DNA from: Hyphomicrobiales bacterium
Lineage (GTDB): Bacteria > Pseudomonadota > Alphaproteobacteria > Rhizobiales > Beijerinckiaceae
Direction: 5' to 3'
DNA length: 64,000 bases
NCBI GenBank assembly: GCA_027483895.1
Contig: JAIXTP010000020.1
Span: forward strand, 27,359 to 91,358
The position numbers and the translations under genes are program-made. The notes under the pieces were generated by a model that saw only the letters and a list, made by a program, of their open reading frames with translations, did not search any database and was not told the origin of the DNA. Shown piece by piece: positions 1,195-49,830 of the stretch (its first letter is position 1; each line of letters starts with the position of its first letter).

Positions 1195-2739
1195 TCAGCC
1201 CGCGCGTTCCGCAACCGGTTCCGTCGCTTCCGAACGCATGACCCGGTTTCGACCGTCATGCTTCCCGGCATAGAGGGCGCGGTCGGCCCTTTGATAGACG
1301 TGAGAGGAGTCGTCGGCGGGACGGACCTCCGCGACGCCGATCGTGATCGAGATCCGCTGCCCGGCGATGCGGCGTGCCGCGACCCGCGCCCGCAGCCGTT
1401 CGGCCAAGCGAAGGGCCTCCTCTTCCGTCGTCTCGGTCAGGATGACGGCGAATTCCTCGCCGCCCACGCGGAAGGCGAAGTCCGTCTCGCGCACTTCCCG
1501 CCGCAAGAGACGCCCGATGCCGATCAGCACCTTGTCGCCCGTGCCGTGCCCGTGCGTGTCGTTGATCGCCTTGAAGTGGTCGACGTCGATGAGCAGCAGG
1601 ACGAAAGGCGAACCGTAGCGGGCATGGGCCGCGATCCGCGCCTTCATCCTGCCGTCGAAGGCGCGGCGATTGGGCAGGCCCGTGAGGCCGTCCGTCATGG
1701 AAATCGTGCGCAGATCCGCATTGGCCCGCTCGAGCGCGGCGGTGCGCTTGCGGACCTCCTTTTCCAGCGTGCCCGCGAGCGCCTCGGCTTCGGCCTTGCT
1801 CGCCGCGAGCCGGTTGGTCGCGGAGGCGAGGATGAAACCCATGACGGCGATGGCGGCGCAGACGAGCAGCCCCACCATGATCATCATGCCTACGCCCGCC
1901 GTGATCTCCTCGAAGGCGGCGCTTTTCGAAATGCGCGTCGAGACGACGAGCGGGTACTCGGCCAGACGGAGATAATAGGAGAAATAGCCGTGGCCGTTCT
2001 CCGCGTCGCCTTCGATCCAGCCCTCGGGAAATTCGGCGGCCCGCGCCGCCAGAGACGGTCGCGTCTGGCCCTCGGCCAGAACGGCCTCGACGTTCTGAGA
2101 CGTCATCCGCACGACGCCGTCCATGCCGGTGAGCGCGATCTCGTCTTCCGCCGAAAGGCCGAGCCGGTCCCAGAGCTTCGCCAGATAGGCGGGATCGAGC
2201 GAGGCCACGAGGACGCCCGCGAGCGAGCCGTCCTTCTCCTTCACGGCGCGGGTGATCTGGACGGACCATTTCTTGGAGACGCGGCCGAGCACCGGCTTGC
2301 CGATGAAGAGGCCGCCCGCCGACGCCGGCAGGAGCCGATCGAGATGCACGCGGATGTGCTCCCGGTCGACGAGCGAGACCGGCTCTGCCGGGCCCTGCTC
2401 CGTCTCGCGCACGCGCCCGTCGGCGCCCACCAGCGTGAGCAACACGAGATCCCGGGCGGCGAAGCCGTTCTCGCGCACGAGAGAAGCGAGGGAGGTGCCT
2501 TCGGGATTCTGGACGAGATCGCGGGCGGTGACCTTCAGCAGGCTGTCGATGGTGGCGATGGTCGCGGCGACGCGCTCGCCGAAGATGATGGTCGCCGAAC
2601 GGGCCTTGTCGCGCGCCTCGGCCTCCGCCGCCATGGTGATGCGGGAAATCGTGAAGCCGATCAGGATCGTGAATGCGGCAATCAGCGCCGATGTCACGGC
2701 AATGATCGCCTTGGAGGTCGACAGTCGCTGAACGGTCAA
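1195..2739 (-). CDS. membrane-anchored sensor diguanylate cyclase (periplasmic Cache-like sensor domain, TM, coiled coil, GGDEF)
   Basis: C-terminal GGDEF domain: DGLTGLPNRRAF, DVDHFKAINDTHGH, active-site GGEEF with an RETD I-site 5 residues upstream. N-terminal TM helix plus a second TM flank a domain of about 250 aa. Confidence 0.9.
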   Translation of the reverse strand: MTVQRLSTSKAIIAVTSALIAAFTILIGFTISRITMAAEAEARDKARSATIIFGERVAATIATIDSLLKVTARDLVQNPEGTSLASLVRENGFAARDLVLLTLVGADGRVRETEQGPAEPVSLVDREHIRVHLDRLLPASAGGLFIGKPVLGRVSKKWSVQITRAVKEKDGSLAGVLVASLDPAYLAKLWDRLGLSAEDEIALTGMDGVVRMTSQNVEAVLAEGQTRPSLAARAAEFPEGWIEGDAENGHGYFSYYLRLAEYPLVVSTRISKSAAFEEITAGVGMMIMVGLLVCAAIAVMGFILASATNRLAASKAEAEALAGTLEKEVRKRTAALERANADLRTISMTDGLTGLPNRRAFDGRMKARIAAHARYGSPFVLLLIDVDHFKAINDTHGHGTGDKVLIGIGRLLRREVRETDFAFRVGGEEFAVILTETTEEEALRLAERLRARVAARRIAGQRISITIGVAEVRPADDSSHVYQRADRALYAGKHDGRNRVMRSEATEPVAERAG

Positions 2740-3167
2740 AGGCTTGCTCGCACGAATCCCGGGGCCGCGGTCATCTTCGCCTATATTGAGCGATTTAGCC
2801 GAAAACAGGCGCGCGATGCAAGTCGAAGATCAATTTTTGCAATTTTCGGATAATCGGATCGATTTCCCGACGGGAACCGATGATTAACTCCGGTCCGTGA
2901 TCTGAATCGGCATGCAACATCGCGCGACATAGATTAGATGTCGATCCGTCCTGCCGGTCCTACGTGCAGGGGTATCCCGGGGAACGGATCCGAGGAGGTC
3001 GCTCGAGAGGGTGGGTACCCGAATGTCAGTCCGGCCGTCGTTGTACCCCGTCGATCGGGCGGGCCCGCCCGATGGACGCTTGTCCGGCGAGGCGATCCGC
3101 CTCATCCCTTTCGAACTCGTCGGCCGAGAGGCTCCGGCTTCCGACCGACTGCGTAGAGGCTGCATGC

Positions 3168-3764
3168 GTGTCGAGACGACCGATCGGAAAGGTGCTCGCT
3201 TCTGCCGGGTCGGTCCTGGGCTTCTTCCTGATGCTCGGCAGGGCCGAGGCGGGGCCCGTCTTCGACGTTCTGGAGGCGACCCATCTCGTCGGCGTGAAGG
3301 AGGGTTCGCGTCTTTCGGATGTTCCGTTTCGGGTCAGTACGGAATCCTACGAACTGAGCGACGGCACGCCGGTCGATATGGAGAAGTGGTATCGACGCAA
3401 GTCGGTCGACATGCAGTTCGACTTTCTCACCCAGACAGGACCGAACACCGGTATCTTGTGGGGCTTCGGAACGGGAGAACGGGGCAAGAAATACAAGATC
3501 GAGCCGTCTTTCAGGATCGGCCTGATCGCGATGACGCAGCCCACGCCGATGTTGACGTTGTCGTTTTCGGTGACGACGACTTTGGGCGGCATGCTTCGCG
3601 AACGGACCTGTACTGCGGATTACGGGGCGATCGGCGGAATTCAGGTGGTCAATTGCCGGTTGGCCGCCTCGACGCTCGAACCGGCGGAGACGTTGAAATA
3701 TCTGTGGCGGACGAAGCCCACGGACCACACGCGGCTCGGACTGAGGGTCCAGCTGCAGTTCTGA
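3168..3764 (+). CDS. hypothetical secreted / outer-membrane beta-barrel-like protein
   Basis: Signal-like N-terminus (LASAGSVLGFFLMLGRAEA), alternating beta-strand pattern and a C-terminal RVQLQF ending in Phe, as in OM proteins. Lies 17 nt upstream of the subtilase gene. Start (GTG 3168) is uncertain. Confidence 0.4.
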   Translation: MSRRPIGKVLASAGSVLGFFLMLGRAEAGPVFDVLEATHLVGVKEGSRLSDVPFRVSTESYELSDGTPVDMEKWYRRKSVDMQFDFLTQTGPNTGILWGFGTGERGKKYKIEPSFRIGLIAMTQPTPMLTLSFSVTTTLGGMLRERTCTADYGAIGGIQVVNCRLAASTLEPAETLKYLWRTKPTDHTRLGLRVQLQF

Positions 3765-3780
3765 GGAAGGGTCGGACATC

Positions 3781-4734
3781 ATGACGACGATGAAGCGCTT
3801 CACTCTCTCGGTCTCGGCCGCGGCGTTCGCCTGCGGTCTCGCTTCGGCGGCGACGGCCGGCGACGGGGTTCCGGTCTTCGGCTCCGTCTCCGCGGCGCCC
3901 CGGTTCTCGACCGGCCCGATCCTTCAGCCCTGGATGAGCCCGGAACTCGGCGATGCGTGGAAGCAGGGCTTCAGCGGCGCCGGCGTGACGATCACGGTCG
4001 TCGACGATTTCCGCAGCGGGAATTTCTATTACGGCAATCTCGGCAACGGCACGCAGCTGCGGCGCCACGGCGAGTGGACCTATCTCGAGACCAACATGGT
4101 CGCGCCCTCGGCGACCATGAAGTCGCAGGACTTCACCTCCGGCCAGACGGTGAAGCTGAACCGCGGGCTGAACGTGCTCAATCTCAGCTACGGGATGTAT
4201 GCCGCGGCGGGCTACAGCGTCGGCCAGATCGGCTGGAGCGCGCAGGAAGGCTCGATCATCTCCTATGCGAAGAACGGGCAGGCGGTGATCGCCAAGGCGG
4301 CGGGCAACGATGCCGTCGCCGTAGGCGCCGCGAATGCGCGGGGGCAGGTCGACTATCTGAACGCCTCTCTCGTCGGCACGCCGACCGCGATCTTCGTGGG
4401 TGCGCTCGACCGCAACGGCACGGTCGATCAAAAGGCCGTTCTCGCCTCCTATTCGAACTATGCGGGCACGAACACGGCGGTGCAGAAGAACTTCCTGACG
4501 GTCGGCGTGCGCGGCGATTTGACGGGGCTTTACGGCACGTCCTTCGCGGCGCCCGTGGTCGCGGGCTATGCGGCGGTGCTGGGCAGCAAGTTCACCAGTG
4601 CGAGCCCGACGCAGATCACCAACCAGCTTCTGAACACCGCGCGCACCGACACGATCCAGGGCTATAACGCCGCCGTCCACGGCCGCGGCGAAGCGAGCAT
4701 CGCGCGCGCTCTCGCGCCGCGGGCCATCCAGTAA
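3781..4734 (+). CDS. secreted subtilisin-family (S8) serine peptidase
   Basis: Signal peptide (FACGLASAATA). Asp motif VTITVVDDF, His motif RRHGEW, oxyanion Asn in AAGND, Ser motif GTSFAAPVVAGYAAVL. Confidence 0.85.
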   Translation: MTTMKRFTLSVSAAAFACGLASAATAGDGVPVFGSVSAAPRFSTGPILQPWMSPELGDAWKQGFSGAGVTITVVDDFRSGNFYYGNLGNGTQLRRHGEWTYLETNMVAPSATMKSQDFTSGQTVKLNRGLNVLNLSYGMYAAAGYSVGQIGWSAQEGSIISYAKNGQAVIAKAAGNDAVAVGAANARGQVDYLNASLVGTPTAIFVGALDRNGTVDQKAVLASYSNYAGTNTAVQKNFLTVGVRGDLTGLYGTSFAAPVVAGYAAVLGSKFTSASPTQITNQLLNTARTDTIQGYNAAVHGRGEASIARALAPRAIQ

Positions 4735-6585: not shown

Positions 6586-7371
6586 TCAGAACTTGTAGGC
6601 GAGACCGGCGCGGATCTGATGGACGTTGGTGCCGATCTTGACGGGACCGAAGACGTCCTCGTTCGAATAGGTCTGCTTGCCGTAGCCGCGGAACTGGTAT
6701 TCGGCGCGCATCACGAAATTCGAGGTGAACGCGTAGTCGAGGCCCGCGCCGACGGTCCAACCGACATGGGTCTTGGACTTGCTCTCGCTTCCGGTGCCGA
6801 TGAGCCCCGTGGTGTCCTCGGTGATCGAGGCGGTGCCCTTCATGTCGGCGAAGGCGATGCCGGCGGTGACGAAGGGCAGGGCGTTGCCCATGGCGTAGCC
6901 GAGACGGCCGCGGATCGTGCCCGAGACGCGCTCCTTGAGCGAAACCGACGCGCGCACCGTGTCGGTGCCGTCCGTCGCGACGGCCGTATCCTTGCGCTCC
7001 AAGGTCCCGAAATTCACGTCGCCTTCGAGGCCGTAGACGAGGTTCGCGGACTGCAGGTTGTAGCCGGCATAGAGGCCGCCCACGAAGCCGTTGAAGTCGC
7101 CCTTGTTGCGGGAATAGGTGGCCCCGACGAGGTTCGCGGTATCGGCCGCGGCCTGATCGAAGGCGCTCAGGATCCCGTTGACCCCCGAAACGGTGCCGAA
7201 GCCGTAGCCGGCATGCGCGCCGACATAGGGGCCGGCCCAGGAATGAACGCTCGCCGCCTTGGGCGCCTGAGGCGCGATCGGCGACGTACGGGCCGGGAGA
7301 TCGGCCGCGAAAGCGGCCGGAGCCACGAGAATGGCGGCCGCGGAGGCCATGGCGAGCGACTTCAGTTTCAT
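6586..7371 (-). CDS. Omp25/Omp31 (RopB)-family outer-membrane beta-barrel porin
   Basis: MKLKSLAMASAAAILVAPAAFAADLP signal peptide, SWAGPYVGAHAGYGFG, GFVGGLYAGYNLQ, RGRLGYA, C-terminal IRAGLAYKF. This is the classic rhizobial Omp25/31 pattern. Confidence 0.88.
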   Translation of the reverse strand: MKLKSLAMASAAAILVAPAAFAADLPARTSPIAPQAPKAASVHSWAGPYVGAHAGYGFGTVSGVNGILSAFDQAAADTANLVGATYSRNKGDFNGFVGGLYAGYNLQSANLVYGLEGDVNFGTLERKDTAVATDGTDTVRASVSLKERVSGTIRGRLGYAMGNALPFVTAGIAFADMKGTASITEDTTGLIGTGSESKSKTHVGWTVGAGLDYAFTSNFVMRAEYQFRGYGKQTYSNEDVFGPVKIGTNVHQIRAGLAYKF

Positions 7372-7383
7372 TGCGATCCTCAC

Positions 7384-7690
7384 GGAATGCTCTTTTCAAA
7401 GCCCAAAATGGGCTGTACGGCTCGTTACATAGTTCACTTTGATGCGGTAAGTCTAGAGGAACCCAAAATGAGTCAACAGGGTGTGTTCTATGTGCAACAA
7501 GGCAATTATCAAAAATCAAAAATATCGGAACGTGATACGTGGTGTATGAAGGCAAGCAAGATGACAATATAAAAGCTGAAAGCAAGATCGAAGATCAAAA
7601 ATATAGTTTTTGATAGTTCGCGAAGAATGTGGAAGCCTTGGAAAGGCGTTGCGTGGTGGTGTGAAGTGTTATCCGAATGGTTCGGTTCGA
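7384..7690. other. conspicuously AT-rich intergenic region between the porin gene and the recombinase gene
   Basis: Composition by eye departs sharply from the GC-rich flanks. Contains repeated ATCAAAAA motifs, a CCCAAAATG direct repeat (7402 and 7462) and a 34-codon ORF preceded by an SD. Confidence 0.7.
7594..7614. repeat. 21-bp palindrome ATCAAAAA-TATAG-TTTTTGAT, resembling hix/gix-type invertase half-sites
   Basis: Perfect 8-bp inverted arms read directly. More ATCAAAAA copies occur in direct orientation at 7508-7515, with a 7-nt TCAAAAA copy at 7516-7522. The palindrome lies about 180 bp upstream of the serine recombinase start. Confidence 0.4.
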
Positions 7691-7796
7691 TCGTGGTCCT
7701 GATTCGGCGTCCGCTCGGCGGCCGGCCGAAGCGCCGCGGCCTGCGTTCTGAAGGGTTGCGGGCGTGTTCTCGGAGCGCCGAGCGGCGGGCCGCGCC

Positions 7797-8357
7797 ATGA
7801 TCGTCGGATACGCGCGCATATCCGCCGTCGAGCCGAAGGCGGCCTTGGATGCTCAGAAGGACGAGCTCGCGGCAGCCGGTGCCGAGAAGATCTTCGCCGA
7901 ATCGGCGGGGTCCGAGGGACTGCGCGTCGAATGGGATGCGGCCTCGGCATTCGTCCGCGAAGGCGACGTTCTGATCGTCACCGCGCCGGGTCGGCTCGCC
8001 CGCTCGGTCCTGCATCTGGGCGAGATCGTCGCCGATCTCGACCGACGCGGCGTCTCGCTCCGCGTGCTCTCGCTCGGCGCGGATACGGCCACGCCCGAAG
8101 GCCGGCGCATGGTCGACTTCCTTGCCGCGCTCGTGCGGTTCGAGCGGGAGGCGATGCTGGAGCGTCGGCGCGAGGGGATCGCCAAGGCGCGGCAGGAGGG
8201 GCGCGCGAGGGGCAGGTCGCCCACGGCTCGGGCAAAGAGCGACGACGTTCTCAGGCTCGCTGCCGACGGGATGAAGCGCGCCGCCATCGCGAAGTTGCTC
8301 GGGATCGGCGTCGCGAGCGTCTATCGGATCCTGAAGGACCGGCGCGCGCAACAGTGA
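7797..8357 (+). CDS. small serine recombinase (resolvase/invertase family, about 186 aa, C-terminal HTH)
   Basis: N-terminal VGYARIS (catalytic Arg/Ser), GDVLIV..GRLARS, FEREAMLERRREG (E-helix), C-terminal HTH IAKLLGIGVASVYRIL. Size and layout resemble Hin/Gin/gamma-delta resolvase. Confidence 0.85.
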   Translation: MIVGYARISAVEPKAALDAQKDELAAAGAEKIFAESAGSEGLRVEWDAASAFVREGDVLIVTAPGRLARSVLHLGEIVADLDRRGVSLRVLSLGADTATPEGRRMVDFLAALVRFEREAMLERRREGIAKARQEGRARGRSPTARAKSDDVLRLAADGMKRAAIAKLLGIGVASVYRILKDRRAQQ

Positions 8358-8468
8358 CGGCGTCCGGCGCTCCTGCACGCGACGGGCGGGCTCGACCGCG
8401 GACCGCCGGAAGAACCTCGGAGGGACGCGCCGGCTGCAGGATTTCGTCGGATTTTTTTATCTGGAAGA

Positions 8469-8544
8469 TGGTGCCCAGGGGCGGAATCGAACCACCGACA
8501 CTGCGATTTTCAGTCGCATGCTCTACCAACTGAGCTACCTGGGC
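8469..8544 (-). tRNA. tRNA-Phe (anticodon GAA)
   Basis: The reverse complement reads GCCCAGGTAGCTCAGTTGGTAGAGCATGCGACTGAAAATCGCAGTGTCGGTGGTTCGATTCCGCCCCTGGGCACCA. It forms a cloverleaf with a GAA anticodon loop, a T-loop GGTTCGATTCC and an encoded CCA. Confidence 0.95.
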
Positions 8545-8938
8545 GTGCCCGGGCCGACACCGGAGCGTCGCGGACGAACGGGCTTATAGAGACTCGAATC
8601 GGGACTGTCCAGCACCGCGAGGCCGGGTTCTTCGTCGCAGTGCGAAGGGCGCCTCGGGGGCGGGGGCGAGGGCCCGGGACGGGGCGCGGAACCTCTGCCG
8701 GGCGGCGGCGCCGCCCTCGGTACGGCCCGGATCGGGCAGGCAAGGCGGCGGAGATCGGCGGGGTGCGGGAGAGCGGGCTTCCGACGCCTTGGCGCGGCGG
8801 GGTTCGGGTGCTATGGCGATGCCTTCGCGGGTGCACACGGGAATCGGCCCCGCTTTCGTCTTCCGCGGACGCGTTCCGGACCGGGTCGTCGCTTCGGCCC
8901 CGGCGGCCGCTCCGCACCAAGTGCGAGGAGATCGAGCG

Positions 8939-46542: not shown

Positions 46543-47080
46543 TCGAATCTCCTCGACGGTCTTCACTGCGCGCGTTCTATAGGGCCTCGCATCGTAGGTG
46601 GTAAGTCGTATTGCGGCGGCGACGAATTCAGCAGAGTTTCCGGGACTCGAAGATACCGGCCGAACGCAGTCGTTTGCAGTAATCCGACCGCTCGAAAACG
46701 GCCCGTAACCGTTCGCATTTCGTGCAGTCGAAAGGATATTCCGGTCCGAAAGCCGGTGGTGATCCGTCGGGCCGAGCCCGCGGATCATGCGGGCGACGTA
46801 TTCGATCCCGTCGAGACCCGGATCGCGGATCCGTCGCAACGAAAGGGACGGCTTTTTTCGTCGATGCTCGGGATGTTCAAGCTGCCGGGAATTCTCAACC
46901 GAGGGTAGCAGGTGCTATGATGAAGCCATGGCACCCGTCGTTCTCCTCAATCTCATCGCGGCACGTCTCGGCCTTCGCAAGTCCGGGCTGCCGCTCGACC
47001 GGCAGGCGCCCGCGGACGAGCCGTCCGTGGACAATCAGCGCGAGATCCTGATCGGGATCGCGATCGTCGTCGTGCTGATT

Positions 47081-48736
47081 TCAATCGGTCTTGCGGCTTG
47101 GCTCGTCGAGAGCGACGGTCCGTTCGGACAGTTCCAGCCATAAGCGCTTCTGCGCCGCGTCGAGCTCCTGCGACCGGGCGATGATCGCGCCGACGGCGGC
47201 GCCGTTGGGAAGGGTCGCGAGCCGTTTCAGCTGTTCGAACAGGATGTGGAACTGCGCCGCGGCGATCTCCGGATGCTCGGTCAGGAATTCCTTCGGCATG
47301 AAGAGGTCGTTCTTGGCGCGCTCCGTTTGCTGGAACTTCGCCTTCTCGATCAGCACCTCGATCTGGTTGTGCGAGATGTTGAGCCGCTTGGCGAGCTGGG
47401 AGACCTTCTCCATCTCCTCGTCCGACAGCACGCCGTCCGACAGCATCACGTTCAGCTCGTTCTCCAATTGCTGCCGCTGCAGCTGCAATTCCTGCATGAA
47501 GGCCGAGGAGAGGATCGAGGCGGGGATCGCGAAGATGCCGATCCCGAGCAGCGCCATGATGAGCGTCATGAAGCGGCCCATCGGCGTGATCGGCGAGATG
47601 TCGCCGTAGCCGACGCTGGCCAGCGTGATGACGGCCCAATAGATCGCCGTCGGGATGTTCTCGAACTTGTCCGGCTGGGCCTCGTGCTCCAGCAGATAGC
47701 CGAAGCTCGCGGCGAGGATCACGAGCAGCATCATCGTGAAGGCGGCGGCACCGATGATGGGCAATTCGCGCCGCACGACCGACATCAAGGTCGACGTCGA
47801 CCCCGTGTAGCGCGTGAGCTTGAACAGGCGCAGCAGCCGGAAGGTGCGCAGGAAGCGCAGGTCGACGAGATGGTGCAGCAGCACCTCGAGAAAGAACGGC
47901 AGGATCGCGAGCAGGTCGATGAGCGCGACCGGGTTGCGCGCATAGCGGATGCGCCCGCCGAGCCAATGCCGGAATTTCGGTTCTTCGACGCAGGAATAGA
48001 GCCTGAACGCGTATTCGAAGCAGAAGACCAGAACGGCCAACACGTCGAGAACGACGAATTCCAGAGCCAGATTGTAATAGATGGAGTCGACCGACTCGAG
48101 GATGACCGCGAGCACGGATACGAGCACCCAGAACACGATGAAGAGATCGTAATAGTGGTGCAGCGAGCCGCTATGGGGCGAGTCGAAGACGAGCGCGTGG
48201 ACCTTCTGACGGAAGGTGCGGCCCTTGTTCAGCTCCACGAATTCGTGGATCGCGGGCATGAGCACGCGGAAGAGCTTCAGAAGCCGCAGCAGCCGCAGCA
48301 CGCGCAGGACGCGCAGGTCCATGGCGAAGAAGGCGCTGAGATAGAAGGGCAGGATCGCGGCGATGTCGATCAGCGCAAAGACGCTGAACATGTATTTCAG
48401 GCGCGGCACGCTGCTGTCCGCGAACTCTTCGTCTTCGGGCGCCACATACAGGCGGATCAGATATTCGAAGGTGAAGATGATGATCGAGAAGACGTCGAAG
48501 ATGTGGAACCACTTCGCGTAGGGCTCGTACAACGACGGGATCAGCTCGAGGAGCATGATCGTGATGTTCGCGATGATGAGGACCGCGATCCATTGCTCGA
48601 CATGCTCGGCGTAGCTGTGGCCGCCGTGCTTGTCGAAGAGCCAGTGATAGACCGTGCTGCGCAGCGTGCGCCTCTGACGGGCGACGGCGGCCGGAGGGAG
48701 CAGGGCGTCGGCTGCGGGGGGCGCCGTTTCGCTCAT
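47081..48736 (-). CDS. voltage-gated K+ channel-like protein with two tandem voltage-sensor domains, one pore domain and a C-terminal helical cytoplasmic domain
   Basis: Two full S1-S4 sets. S2 is FTFEYLIRLY (aa 88-97) and FCFEYAFRLY (238-247). S3 is ALIDIAAILPFYL (121-133) and ALIDLLAILPFFL (271-283). S4 is RVLRVLRLLRLLKLFR (142-157) and RFLRTFRLLRLFKLTR (294-309). These are followed by S5, a pore helix and the selectivity filter TLASVGYGD (371-379), then S6. Confidence 0.85.
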   Translation of the reverse strand: MSETAPPAADALLPPAAVARQRRTLRSTVYHWLFDKHGGHSYAEHVEQWIAVLIIANITIMLLELIPSLYEPYAKWFHIFDVFSIIIFTFEYLIRLYVAPEDEEFADSSVPRLKYMFSVFALIDIAAILPFYLSAFFAMDLRVLRVLRLLRLLKLFRVLMPAIHEFVELNKGRTFRQKVHALVFDSPHSGSLHHYYDLFIVFWVLVSVLAVILESVDSIYYNLALEFVVLDVLAVLVFCFEYAFRLYSCVEEPKFRHWLGGRIRYARNPVALIDLLAILPFFLEVLLHHLVDLRFLRTFRLLRLFKLTRYTGSTSTLMSVVRRELPIIGAAAFTMMLLVILAASFGYLLEHEAQPDKFENIPTAIYWAVITLASVGYGDISPITPMGRFMTLIMALLGIGIFAIPASILSSAFMQELQLQRQQLENELNVMLSDGVLSDEEMEKVSQLAKRLNISHNQIEVLIEKAKFQQTERAKNDLFMPKEFLTEHPEIAAAQFHILFEQLKRLATLPNGAAVGAIIARSQELDAAQKRLWLELSERTVALDEPSRKTD

Positions 48737-48743
48737 CTGGGCC

Positions 48744-49619
48744 TCACAGACTCAACTCGGCGACCACCTTCACGAGGTGGAAGCCGCGACCGCAGACGAC
48801 GACGCGCACGGTGAGGTCCTTCGCCATGGGTTCGGTCCCGTCGAAGGACGAATAGGTGTAGCTCCCGCTCGCCTGCAGGACGCCCTTTTCGATGATGATC
48901 GAGCCGATGTTCTTCCAGTCGGCGGCGTCGCATTTGCGCTGGAGGAGCGGCCGGCCTTCGACGAAGGGATTGAATTTCTCGTGCAGCGGGCCCGCCGCCT
49001 CGACGAGGGCGGCGGCGCATTTGCTCCACGTCGCGCCGTCCTGCTTGCGGCAGGCTGCGGGCTCGAAATCCTCCGCGCTTCGCTTCTCGGCGGTGTCCTT
49101 CAGCCAGACCACGACGTTCTCGGCTTCGGTCTTCACGTCCTCGATGCGACGCACCTCGCCGATCGAATGCTTGCCCAGAAGGACGATGGCGACGGTGACG
49201 CCGCACAGCGCGCAGAGGAACACGACGTCCGGCAAAGTGAGGCTGCGGATGAAGCTCCAAATCTGGCGGGGGCCGAACAGCGGCGGGTGCTTGTGCTTGT
49301 GGTCCTGATGGCGCGCGAGCCGGGGAGCGGGCGGTCGCGGGGCGGGGACCGGTTCGGGCAAGGCCTCGCCCGATGCCGCCCGCGCTTCGGCTGCCGCTGC
49401 GGCGGCGGCCGCCGCTTCTTCGGCCGCGCTTTGCGCGCCGCGGATGTCGATCCAGATCCGGATAAGGGCGGTGCGGTCGGCGAGCGAGAGCTTGCCGCCG
49501 GGCACGCCCGCCCTGTCGTCGGCGATGGCCTTTTGGAATTCTTCGCGGGCGGCGGCACGCTTCGCGTCGTCCCAGGCGGCAGGGTCGCTGCCCCCGTATT
49601 TACGTTGCAAAGGATGCAT
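48744..49619 (-). CDS. hypothetical single-pass membrane protein, first gene of the channel operon
   Basis: 291 aa: a cytoplasmic N-terminal region with a poly-Ala/Pro linker, one TM helix (LPDVVFLCALCGVTVAIVLLG), and an extracytoplasmic C-domain of about 145 aa with four Cys. Its stop lies 7 nt before the channel ATG. Confidence 0.55.
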   Translation of the reverse strand: MHPLQRKYGGSDPAAWDDAKRAAAREEFQKAIADDRAGVPGGKLSLADRTALIRIWIDIRGAQSAAEEAAAAAAAAAEARAASGEALPEPVPAPRPPAPRLARHQDHKHKHPPLFGPRQIWSFIRSLTLPDVVFLCALCGVTVAIVLLGKHSIGEVRRIEDVKTEAENVVVWLKDTAEKRSAEDFEPAACRKQDGATWSKCAAALVEAAGPLHEKFNPFVEGRPLLQRKCDAADWKNIGSIIIEKGVLQASGSYTYSSFDGTEPMAKDLTVRVVVCGRGFHLVKVVAELSL

Positions 49620-49713
49620 GTCGTTTCCGCGCGGCCGACCCTCGTGATCGGTTCTGGAGAAGTCGCCGTTCCGGAATAAAAACGACTGTAATCAGAAGAA
49701 TTTTATCTTTGAT

Positions 49714-49725
49714 CGATTGCAATCG
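49714..49725. promoter_or_regulatory. perfect 12-bp palindrome CGATTGCAATCG in the AT-rich region upstream of the channel operon (candidate operator)
   Basis: Read directly. Lies about 95 nt upstream of the 49619 start codon, within the only AT-rich stretch of this intergenic region. Confidence 0.3.
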
Positions 49726-49771
49726 GCAAAAGGGCGTATTTCTCGACGTCTTGGCACCATAGAACACGATG

Positions 49772-49798
49772 AAAAAGGCGCCCGCATCGACGGGCGCC
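49772..49798 (-). terminator. rho-independent terminator downstream of the SbtA-like permease gene
   Basis: Stem GGCGCCCG/CGGGCGCC with a 6-nt loop. Plus-strand AAAAA at 49772-49776 gives a U-tract on the minus strand. Confidence 0.65.
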
Positions 49799-49830
49799 CG
49801 ACTGTATCGATCGTTTCCGGCGACTTGACG

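Follow-up and report, generated by a model that had tools for sequence, protein, structure and literature searches.

Voltage-gated K+ channels of the Kv type, such as the eukaryotic KCNQ/Kv7, Kv4 and Kv1 channels and the prokaryotic KvAP and MVP channels, have one S1-S4 voltage-sensor domain (VSD) per pore domain, giving six TM helices per subunit. In two-pore channels (TPC1-3) and in other tandem 6-TM channels (12TM/2P K+ channels, four-repeat Nav/Cav and tetraKCNG-like channels) there is more than one VSD per polypeptide, but every VSD has its own pore domain, because the whole 6-TM unit is duplicated; the two VSDs of TPCs can have different roles, and one of them contributes little to voltage gating. 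The pore-less proteins Hv1, Ci-VSP/TPTE and TMEM266 have a VSD that is not followed by S5-S6, whereas fungal TOK1 (8 TM) has one S1-S4-like bundle and two pore domains in a single chain. In every voltage-gated cation channel studied so far, each voltage sensor is paired with its own pore domain, and the communication between sensors can therefore only be studied indirectly.

The window analysed here is a stretch of 64,000 nucleotides from a Hyphomicrobiales bacterium (Beijerinckiaceae), in which the ORF at 47081..48736 on the minus strand encodes a protein of 551 amino acids (plus stop codon) with the layout preS1-VSD1, linker, preS1-VSD2, S4-S5 linker, S5-P-S6 and a helical C-terminal domain. 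The original prediction, made from the sequence alone, was that two complete tandem VSDs precede a single pore, and this observation is confirmed. The S2 motifs FTFEYLIRLY and FCFEYAFRLY are at residues 88-97 and 238-247, the S3 motifs ALIDIAAILPFYL and ALIDLLAILPFFL are at 121-133 and 271-283, and the S4 charges are at R142/R145/R148/R151/K154/R157 and at R294/R297/R300/R303/K306/R309; this agreement is far beyond chance. The S3-S4 loops lie around residues 136-140 and 288-292. Pfam Ion_trans matches in two stretches (151 bits against a cut-off of 25), as had been proposed as a test of the layout. The full match covers residues 193-416, and the N-terminal 190 residues alone match profile positions 5-112 of 241, corresponding to S1-S4, with E=3.5e-15 (56 bits against a cut-off of 25). 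VSD1 alone also matches the VSDs of solved channels, with E=1.3e-8 for bacterial Nav (PDB entry: 4bgn) and about 7e-7 for Kv4.2. The two modules are an internal repeat: residues 23-157 align to residues 173-309 with one 2-residue gap at 36.5% identity, with a score of 219 against 35 +/- 5.8 for shuffled sequences (z=31.6), and BLASTP gives E=2e-16. In the AF2 model both four-helix modules have pLDDT values of about 80-94, with 80-92 for repeat unit 1. The loop charges, with 18 K+R in predicted inside loops and 2 in outside loops, predict the same membrane orientation for both VSDs.

The part from residue 173 onward is an ordinary Kv subunit. Repeat unit 2 (47810..48220, minus strand; residues 173-309) consists of a pre-S1 helix and the proximal sensor VSD2, having a Shaker-like R1-R4, K5, R6 pattern in S4 and the charge-transfer residues F238, E241 and D274 together with R245, and it aligns without gaps to the VSD and S4-S5 region of KCNQ5/KCNQ2. 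It is followed by the single pore domain (47483..47809, minus strand; residues 310-418), as shown by one Ion_trans_2 hit at 335-414 (E=6.4e-17) and one GYG. The K+ selectivity filter TLASVGYGD (47600..47626, minus strand; residues 371-379) has Ser374 in place of the usual Thr. The best PDB sequence hits of the protein are KCNQ5 and KCNQ2 (E about 1e-27), Kv4.2 and Kv1.x, and the best structural neighbours are likewise KCNQ2/4/5, Kv4.2/4.3 and Kv1.x. The protein differs from these channels in having one extra complete VSD per pore domain (10 TM plus a P-loop), in its C-terminal domain, for which no match to a Kv7-type or T1-type cytoplasmic domain was found, and in its orphan co-encoded partner. 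It scores far below the NCBIfam equivalog cut-offs for the MVP-type hyperpolarisation-activated K+ channel (NF040645; 73.2 against 300 bits) and for Kch (NF007828; 46.8 against 425 bits). When compared with the two-pore and other tandem 6-TM channels, only the pre-S1 to S4 unit is duplicated, the first repeat ending after S4 and running into the pre-S1 helix of the second; true 12TM/2P and 4x6TM relatives (our sequences P0159 and P0143) were found in the same search and are clearly distinct. When compared with TOK1, the number of TM helices before the pore is also non-canonical, but there are two charged VSDs and one pore domain. No PDB chain or NCBIfam model describes the VSD-VSD-pore layout, and literature searches on tandem or additional voltage sensors and on 10-TMS VIC channels gave no description of it either, although most subscription-journal papers lay outside the text searched and this is absence of evidence only. 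Public annotations such as ‘voltage-gated potassium channel Kch’ and ‘hypothetical protein’ do not reveal the layout.

The layout is conserved across a large clade. At least 513 species-level genomes encode relatives, mostly from freshwater bacteria, and the family is concentrated in abundant freshwater bacterioplankton (Limnohabitans, Polynucleobacter, Comamonadaceae and Beijerinckiaceae). Cultured carriers include Limnohabitans sp. 2KL-17 and Rhizobiales bacterium TNE-4. There are 944 hits with E<1e-30. All of the 120 best hits, among more than 120 full-length homologs, have 54-100% identity, and all 78 listed loci show two S4 motifs about 152 residues apart and one GYGD. The identical 551-residue protein is called on contigs from separate sequencing runs and in an NCBI assembly. 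Clearly, the ORF is not a misassembly, a fusion of two genes by a sequencing error or a decaying pseudogene; nothing in favor of such an artefact was found, and the conservation data refute it, in agreement with the invariant functional residues and the host-like GC3. The suggestion in the original prediction of horizontal acquisition, made because the gene appears AT-richer than its neighbors, does not hold. The GC content is indeed lower (0.619 against 0.676 for the window), but this is explained by hydrophobic codons (GC2 of 0.348), whereas GC3 is 0.899, within the range of the neighboring genes (0.76-0.92).

Because synonymous sites are likely to be saturated at these divergences, constraint was assessed from column conservation, using the mean majority frequency for regions and the residue counts in 200 distinct family sequences. 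The pore domain is the most conserved region (0.85 overall and 0.95 for the turret plus filter); the filter is essentially invariant, with seven of its nine positions unchanged in 200 of 200 sequences and V375 being Ile in 2. VSD2 has a value of 0.77, its S4 charges being kept in 196-200 of 200 sequences, and F238, E241 and D274 are unchanged in all 200. In repeat unit 1 (48266..48670, minus strand; residues 23-157), which comprises a pre-S1 helix and the distal sensor VSD1, the key residues are conserved in 175-200 of 200 sequences: F88, E91, R95, D124, R148, K154 and R157 are unchanged in all 200, R142 in 191 and R145 in 194, with Lys in the other 6. The post-S4 cytoplasmic helix of VSD1 (48221..48265, minus strand; residues 158-172, VLMPAIHEFVELNKG) joins S4 of VSD1 to the pre-S1 helix of VSD2. 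In this helix P161, A162 and N170 are invariant, the linker 161-191 has a value of 0.77, as high as VSD2, and the helix 141-169 is continuous in the AF2 model. VSD1 as a whole is somewhat less conserved than VSD2 (0.69 against 0.77), 25 of 200 members show a gap at its R4 position, and W76 replaces the outer S2 Glu (Glu226) found in VSD2, which is compatible with a modified or weaker sensor.

It is possible, although we regard it as unlikely, that VSD1 is a voltage-insensitive structural module, locked in one state and serving as a scaffold for assembly, lipid binding or docking of the partner or other proteins, while VSD2 alone gates the pore, resembling the functionally differentiated VSDs of two-pore channels. 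The lower conservation of VSD1, the Trp76 substitution and the missing R4 position of some members are in line with this, as is the tree of VSD modules, in which the distal VSDs form long-branched groups apart from the pore-proximal VSDs. However, a locked module has no obvious need for the invariant and near-invariant residues listed above, and the S4 of VSD1 is among the best conserved segments of the protein (0.80). A further possibility, that VSD1 is an independent permeation pathway (an Hv1-like proton pathway or an omega-type cation pathway) coupling K+ flux with H+ flux, is considered very unlikely. VSD1, like Hv1 and VSP, is not attached to its own pore domain and retains a complete charged S4, and ion and pH homeostasis is demanding in fresh water, although the latter link is inference. 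On the other hand, it is covalently fused to a complete channel subunit, position 57 in mid-S1 is Asn in 197 of 200 sequences rather than the Hv1-type Asp, the hydrophobic-plug Phe88 is invariant, S4 carries 5-6 charges rather than the three of Hv1, and the nearest matches of VSD1 are Nav and Kv VSDs, with no Hv1 or VSP among its 12 PDB hits. The proton path, which had been raised in the original prediction, therefore has no specific support.

The helical cytoplasmic C-terminal domain (47081..47482, minus strand, including the stop codon; residues 419-551) is the least conserved part of the protein (0.51). Its approximately 130 residues are modeled by AF2 as helices (residues 439-543) with pLDDT values of about 80-87. 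The segment DGVLSDEEMEKVSQLAKRLNIS at 434-455 had been read as TerB/DjlA-N-like, a reading that has only a recurring sub-threshold signal behind it, a repeated hint that is never significant: TerB (PF05099) scores 14-17 bits (at best 17.2 against a cut-off of 24.4) and recurs weakly in 24 of 62 family members with a best E of 0.0016, DUF533 recurs in 5, and DjlA scores 14.4 bits against a cut-off of 162. A profile built from this domain also hits single-VSD channels of 300-400 residues, and the domain is thus shared with single-VSD relatives. The presence of this domain, and of a conserved periplasmic domain in the partner, neither with an assigned function, could suggest that the channel is not primarily voltage-gated, both S1-S4 modules being vestigial and opening being controlled by the C-terminal domain and/or the periplasmic domain of the partner responding to a ligand, as for MlotiK1, a cyclic-nucleotide-regulated 6-TM channel whose S1-S4 domain is thought not to act as a voltage sensor; a cNMP-binding domain in a 4-VSD relative points the same way. 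This also seems unlikely, because the S4 of MlotiK1 has lost most charges, whereas both S4 helices here keep the full Shaker-like R1-R4, K5, R6 pattern and the charge-transfer center, and because the C-terminal domain is the least conserved part of the protein.

Relatives with more sensors also exist. A 3-VSD relative and a 4-VSD relative (P0165) are confirmed by Pfam, each being seen on two independent contigs. P0165 has four tandem S1-S4 modules before a pore that is followed by a cNMP-binding domain, as in the bacterial cyclic-nucleotide-regulated 6-TM K+ channels MlotiK1 and SthK, while the window protein has no such domain. The VSD tree, which is a neighbor-joining tree without bootstrap, suggests several independent duplications. 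These relatives, the single-VSD sister channels with the same pre-S1 motif and C-terminal domain, and the conserved upstream partner gene were missed in the original prediction.

The co-transcribed partner gene (48744..49619, minus strand) encodes an orphan single-pass membrane protein of 291 residues, with a cytosolic helical hairpin (residues 18-82), one TM helix (about residues 128-150) and a periplasmic domain with four invariant Cys and the motif VCGRGFH. It is found immediately 5' of the channel gene in 74 of 80 related genome loci, with a median stop-to-start gap of 8 nt. None of its 41 homologs is annotated, and there are no Pfam, NCBIfam, PADLOC or PDB sequence hits. Its AF2 model has a pLDDT of 88.7; the long helix plus four-stranded sheet suggested a type-IV-pilin-like ‘lollipop’ fold, but Foldseek finds no pilin and no significant match at all (best E of 0.8 in the PDB and 0.39 in BFVD). 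In being a single-pass membrane protein with an extracytoplasmic domain, genetically tied to a Kv-type subunit, it is comparable to the auxiliary subunits DPP6/DPP10 of Kv4, KCNE of KCNQ1 and BK beta/gamma, and DPP6 and KCNE1 complexes appear among the nearest PDB neighbors of the channel (PDB entries: 7e8e and 9vei). There is, however, no sequence or fold similarity to any of them, and its candidate role as an auxiliary subunit rests only on gene linkage. The partner is not specific to VSD1, because a short homolog (hhalign 95.8%, E=7.9e-9) directly precedes the single-VSD sister channel P0148, and the 3-VSD and 4-VSD relatives lack it; VSD1 is therefore not needed as its docking site. The 170-residue ORF upstream of P0148 was also considered as a split-off stand-alone VSD1, but it is this partner homolog and not a VSD.

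The interpretation in the original prediction is thus partly supported: its core reading holds, whereas its horizontal-acquisition suggestion does not and its TerB/DjlA-N suggestion has only a sub-threshold signal behind it. The sequence data establish that the gene encodes a pore-forming subunit of the voltage-gated K+ channel superfamily, in which an internal duplication of the pre-S1 helix plus S1-S4 unit has placed a second complete VSD N-terminal to an otherwise ordinary Kv-type subunit, that both VSDs retain the charge-transfer center and six regularly spaced S4 charges across a clade of several hundred species, and that the gene is the second cistron of a conserved pair. What follows is inferred, including tetramerization, K+ conduction, voltage dependence and any coupling between the VSDs, the AF2 model being a monomer (pTM of 0.57, with pore pLDDT of about 50-57). 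In this view, to which we assign a probability of about 0.5, four subunits would form one K+-selective pore surrounded by eight sensors, and VSD2 would gate the pore by the canonical route from S4 via the S4-S5 linker to S6. VSD1 would be a second working voltage sensor, its S4 movement being passed on to VSD2 through the strongly conserved post-S4 helix and pre-S1 linker (residues 158-191) and/or through lateral contact, which would shift or shape the voltage dependence of opening by allosteric, serial sensor coupling. The partner would be an auxiliary subunit of this channel subfamily, docking through its single TM helix and presenting a disulfide-bonded periplasmic domain; it would be, to our knowledge, the first dedicated auxiliary subunit of a bacterial Kv-type channel. 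More tentatively, and somewhat less likely than not, these proteins may be a previously unrecognized class of voltage-gated K+ channels with arrays of sensors wired in series, with eight working VSDs per tetramer here and 12 or 16 in the 3-VSD and 4-VSD relatives, in which the distal VSD moves in the field and reshapes gating by the proximal VSD, for example through a second voltage threshold, hysteresis or a steeper effective gating charge, the complex including a dedicated auxiliary subunit with an orphan fold. If the distal sensor moves, the family offers a natural system for measuring VSD-to-VSD coupling separately from VSD-to-pore coupling, for asking how eight or more sensors pack around a tetrameric pore and for engineering channels with altered voltage sensitivity. 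It may also bear on how cells living in very dilute water control membrane potential and K+.

A sigma-70-like promoter candidate is found upstream of the partner-channel pair at 49700..49729 (minus strand), with 9 of 12 consensus matches where 0.2 sites are expected in shuffled sequences, which is weak evidence only. A terminator-like hairpin at 49776..49799 (minus strand), with a 10-bp stem having 8 GC pairs followed by a T-run, ends the preceding Sbt gene and marks the 5' boundary of the two-gene unit, although this is a consensus match only. A role in anti-phage defense was considered and rejected, because PADLOC gives only two weak hits to the C-terminal helices of the channel (E about 1e-3). 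A third VSD was also considered for some relatives of the main clade, in which several tblastn matches span 2.0-2.3 kb, but the ORFs at these loci are of about 550 residues with two S4 motifs, and the extra span comes from one or two additional single-VSD Kv-like genes downstream.

The minus-strand ORF at 47081-48736 encodes the 551-aa protein of the original prediction, in which a K+ channel with two complete tandem voltage-sensor domains (VSDs) in front of a single pore was proposed, and every motif quoted in that proposal is found at the stated residue positions. The observation is confirmed. Pfam Ion_trans matches this protein in two stretches, whereas Ion_trans_2, which corresponds to the pore, matches once, at residues 335-414. 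The first 190 residues alone match the Ion_trans profile positions 5-112 of 241, being S1-S4 only, with E=3.5e-15 and 56 bits against a gathering score of 25, and the same segment matches the VSDs of solved channels, namely the bacterial Nav 4bgn at E=1.3e-8 and Kv4.2 at about 7e-7. When residues 23-157 are aligned with residues 173-309, there is a single two-residue gap and the identity is 36.5%, with a score of 219 against 35 +/- 5.8 for shuffled sequences (z=31.6), and BLASTP gives E=2e-16. The duplicated unit is therefore the pre-S1 helix plus S1-S4, with a period of about 150 aa. In the AF2 model, built on 62 homologs, two four-helix modules are predicted with pLDDT of about 80-94 and the C-terminal domain is predicted to be helical with pLDDT of about 80-87, whereas the pore is weak (about 50-57), as expected when a tetrameric pore is modelled as a monomer. 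The loop charges, with 18 K+R in the predicted inside loops and 2 in the outside loops, predict an N-in topology with both VSDs in the canonical orientation.

The possibility that this ORF is an artefact is extremely unlikely, as the identical protein is called on contigs from different sequencing runs and in an NCBI assembly, and the best 120 database hits are all 529-586 aa long, cover at least 91% of the query and range from 54 to 100% identity. A scan of one genome per GTDB species found at least 513 genomes encoding a relative. Among the best 80 of these, most are freshwater Beijerinckiaceae/Hyphomicrobiales and Burkholderiales (Limnohabitans, Polynucleobacter, Polaromonas, Comamonadaceae), with a few Methylococcaceae, and all 78 loci listed when the S4 and filter motifs were checked have two S4 motifs about 152 aa apart and one GYGD. 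The organism names of a few MAG records look implausible for contigs that carry this freshwater proteobacterial channel cassette (loci L036 and L038, titled 'uncultured Bifidobacterium sp.', and L030 and L080, titled 'Bordetella parapertussis'), and mislabelled or contaminated bins are likely.

The residue conservation was examined in 200 distinct family sequences. In VSD1, F88, E91, R95, D124, R148, K154 and R157 are unchanged in 200 of 200, R142 is present in 191, and R145 is present in 194, with Lys in the other 6. R151, the R4 position of VSD1 (codon at 48284-48286 of the window), is present in 175 sequences, and the remaining 25 show an alignment gap, such that some lineages may have a shortened distal S4. 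In VSD2, every equivalent position is conserved in 196-200 of 200. The filter TLASVGYGD is essentially invariant; it reads S-V-G-Y-G rather than the usual T-V-G-Y-G, and this serine, Ser374 (codon at 47615-47617), is unchanged in 200 of 200. The mean majority-residue frequency by segment is 0.69 for VSD1 (0.80 for its S4 alone), 0.77 for the intermodule linker, 0.77 for VSD2, 0.85 for the pore and 0.51 for the C-terminal domain. VSD1 is thus a constrained, fully equipped sensor rather than a decaying copy. The alternative that VSD1 is a locked scaffold module is considered doubtful but is the strongest of the competing readings.

An exhaustive HMMER search of 1.84 billion cluster representatives gave 21,036 hits, of which 944 are below 1e-30, and the top 150 were dissected with sub-HMMs for VSD1, VSD2, pore, linker and C-terminal domain. 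This identified about 20 clusters with the VSD-VSD-pore architecture, down to roughly 35% identity, as well as single-VSD channels carrying the same pre-S1 motif and C-terminal domain, and 12TM/2P and 4x(6TM) K+ channels. The same search recovered K+ channels (hits P0143, of 1493 aa, P0155 and P0159/P0160) that are built from four, three or two complete VSD-pore repeats, each repeat with its own GYG. Two further relatives carry more sensors: P0144 (691 aa; locus L083, 244-2319) has three tandem VSDs and one pore, and P0165 (848 aa; locus L085, 4001-6547) has four tandem VSDs, one pore and a cNMP-binding domain. Pfam confirms three and four Ion_trans stretches, respectively, with a single pore, and each of these two is seen on two independent contigs. 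In the neighbor-joining tree of the individual VSD modules, which is without bootstrap and therefore only indicative, the distal VSDs of the main family lie apart from the proximal VSDs, which group with the VSDs of single-VSD channels. Both extra modules of P0144 fall among the distal type, whereas the modules of P0165, of P0188 and of P0204/P0231 (other hits of this search) each group with their own chain-mates. This suggests one old duplication for the main family and several independent ones elsewhere. In several Burkholderiales genomes, the double-VSD gene is followed on the same strand by one or two single-VSD Kv-like paralogs (in locus L054 at 6909-7799 and 7800-8726, with the same pattern in L033, L044, L047 and L070), in which the filter is altered and one residue shorter (ITSGYGNVEP, IISGWGNVDP) and which carry the same C-terminal motif. 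It is possible that these are heteromeric partners or non-K+-selective paralogs.

The channel ATG lies 7 nt after the stop codon of a 291-aa ORF on the same strand (48744-49619, minus strand), with a GAGG motif overlapping that stop. This ORF, which encodes a predicted single-pass membrane protein, is found by tblastn immediately 5' of the channel gene in 74 of the 80 reference loci, whereas the other neighbors, a CMAS-type methyltransferase and an Sbt-type permease, are not conserved. The stop-to-start distance has a median of 8 nt and lies between -23 and +37 nt in 73 of the 74 loci. In the window, the pair is preceded by a terminator-like hairpin after the preceding gene and by a promoter-like site, but this is weak evidence. 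The partner protein has 41 detectable homologs, none of which is annotated, and no match was found for it in Pfam, NCBIfam, PADLOC or the PDB sequences. Its AF2 model is confident (pLDDT 88.7) and shows a predicted cytosolic helical hairpin (residues 18-82), a disordered linker, one very long helix (129-179) that contains the TM segment, and a C-terminal α/β domain with four invariant cysteines and the motif VCGRGFH, but Foldseek finds nothing significant for this model in the PDB or BFVD. In Burkholderiales, the partner is a short form of about 180-220 aa that lacks the cytosolic domain. A short partner homolog of 170 aa also precedes, with a 4-nt overlap, the single-VSD sister channel P0148 (411 aa; this arrangement lies at 2492-4236 of locus L088, and is seen also in L089), as judged from an hhalign probability of 95.8% (E=7.9e-9), and this sister channel has the same pre-S1 'linker' motif and C-terminal domain. 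This suggests that the partner-plus-channel cassette predates the extra VSD. Neither the 3-VSD nor the 4-VSD relative has the partner gene upstream. The partner therefore belongs to this Kv subfamily rather than to VSD1, and it is a candidate auxiliary subunit. A reading in which the channel is controlled by a ligand or by the partner, with vestigial sensors, is considered unlikely.

The sequence analysis establishes a subunit of the Kv superfamily with two complete sensors of the same orientation, one K+-type pore, a helical cytoplasmic tail and a conserved co-cistronic membrane partner, whereas its function, including the assembly, conduction and voltage dependence, is inferred. Four subunits would form the pore, since one P-loop per chain requires this in all known K+ channels, and VSD2 would gate the pore through its S4-S5 linker. 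That region aligns without gaps to KCNQ5 and KCNQ2, which no more than hints at a domain-swapped arrangement. In the model, the S4 of VSD1 continues as a helix into the cytoplasm (residues 141-169) and joins the pre-S1 helix of VSD2 through one of the best conserved stretches of the protein, in which P161, A162, N170, R173, R176, A181 and G190 are invariant. The favored model is therefore that VSD1 is a second moving sensor that tunes VSD2 and hence opening, with a probability of about 0.5. An Hv1-like proton path through VSD1 is disfavored by Asn57 in S1, the invariant plug Phe88 and the 5-6 S4 charges, and is regarded as very unlikely.

The nearest sequence and fold neighbors are KCNQ2/4/5, Kv4.2/4.3, Kv1.x and KvAP, and all of the listed PDB matches are ordinary single-VSD Kv chains, each matched in one stretch, from which the present protein differs by its second complete VSD. 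The NCBIfam equivalogs for MVP and Kch are missed by wide margins. Two-pore channels and other tandem-repeat channels duplicate the whole 6-TM unit, and such relatives, which were also found in the HMMER search, are distinct. Hv1 and VSP have a VSD without any pore in the chain, and TOK1 has one S1-S4-like bundle and two pores. No description of a VSD-VSD-pore channel was found in full-text literature searches, although these do not cover the complete literature and are not proof of absence, and this architecture, which is real, widespread and constrained, is apparently undescribed.

The core of the original interpretation is thus supported, but the same does not hold for its side claims. The horizontal acquisition, which had been hinted at by the AT-richness of the gene, is not supported, as the GC3 of the gene is 0.899, compared with 0.76-0.92 for the neighboring genes, and its lower total GC (0.619) comes from a GC2 of 0.348, which reflects hydrophobic residues. 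The proposed TerB/DjlA-N-like nature of the C-terminal region remains a repeated subthreshold signal, with TerB scoring 14-17 bits against 24.4 and matching weakly in 24 of 62 members, and with DjlA scoring 14 against 162. Two long ORFs, at 47246-48814 on the plus strand (522 aa) and at 46953-47966 on the minus strand (337 aa), overlap the channel gene on the opposite strand or in another frame, and their translations are of low complexity, being Arg/Asp/Glu-rich or Arg/Ala-rich; these are probably artefacts of the high G+C content rather than genes.
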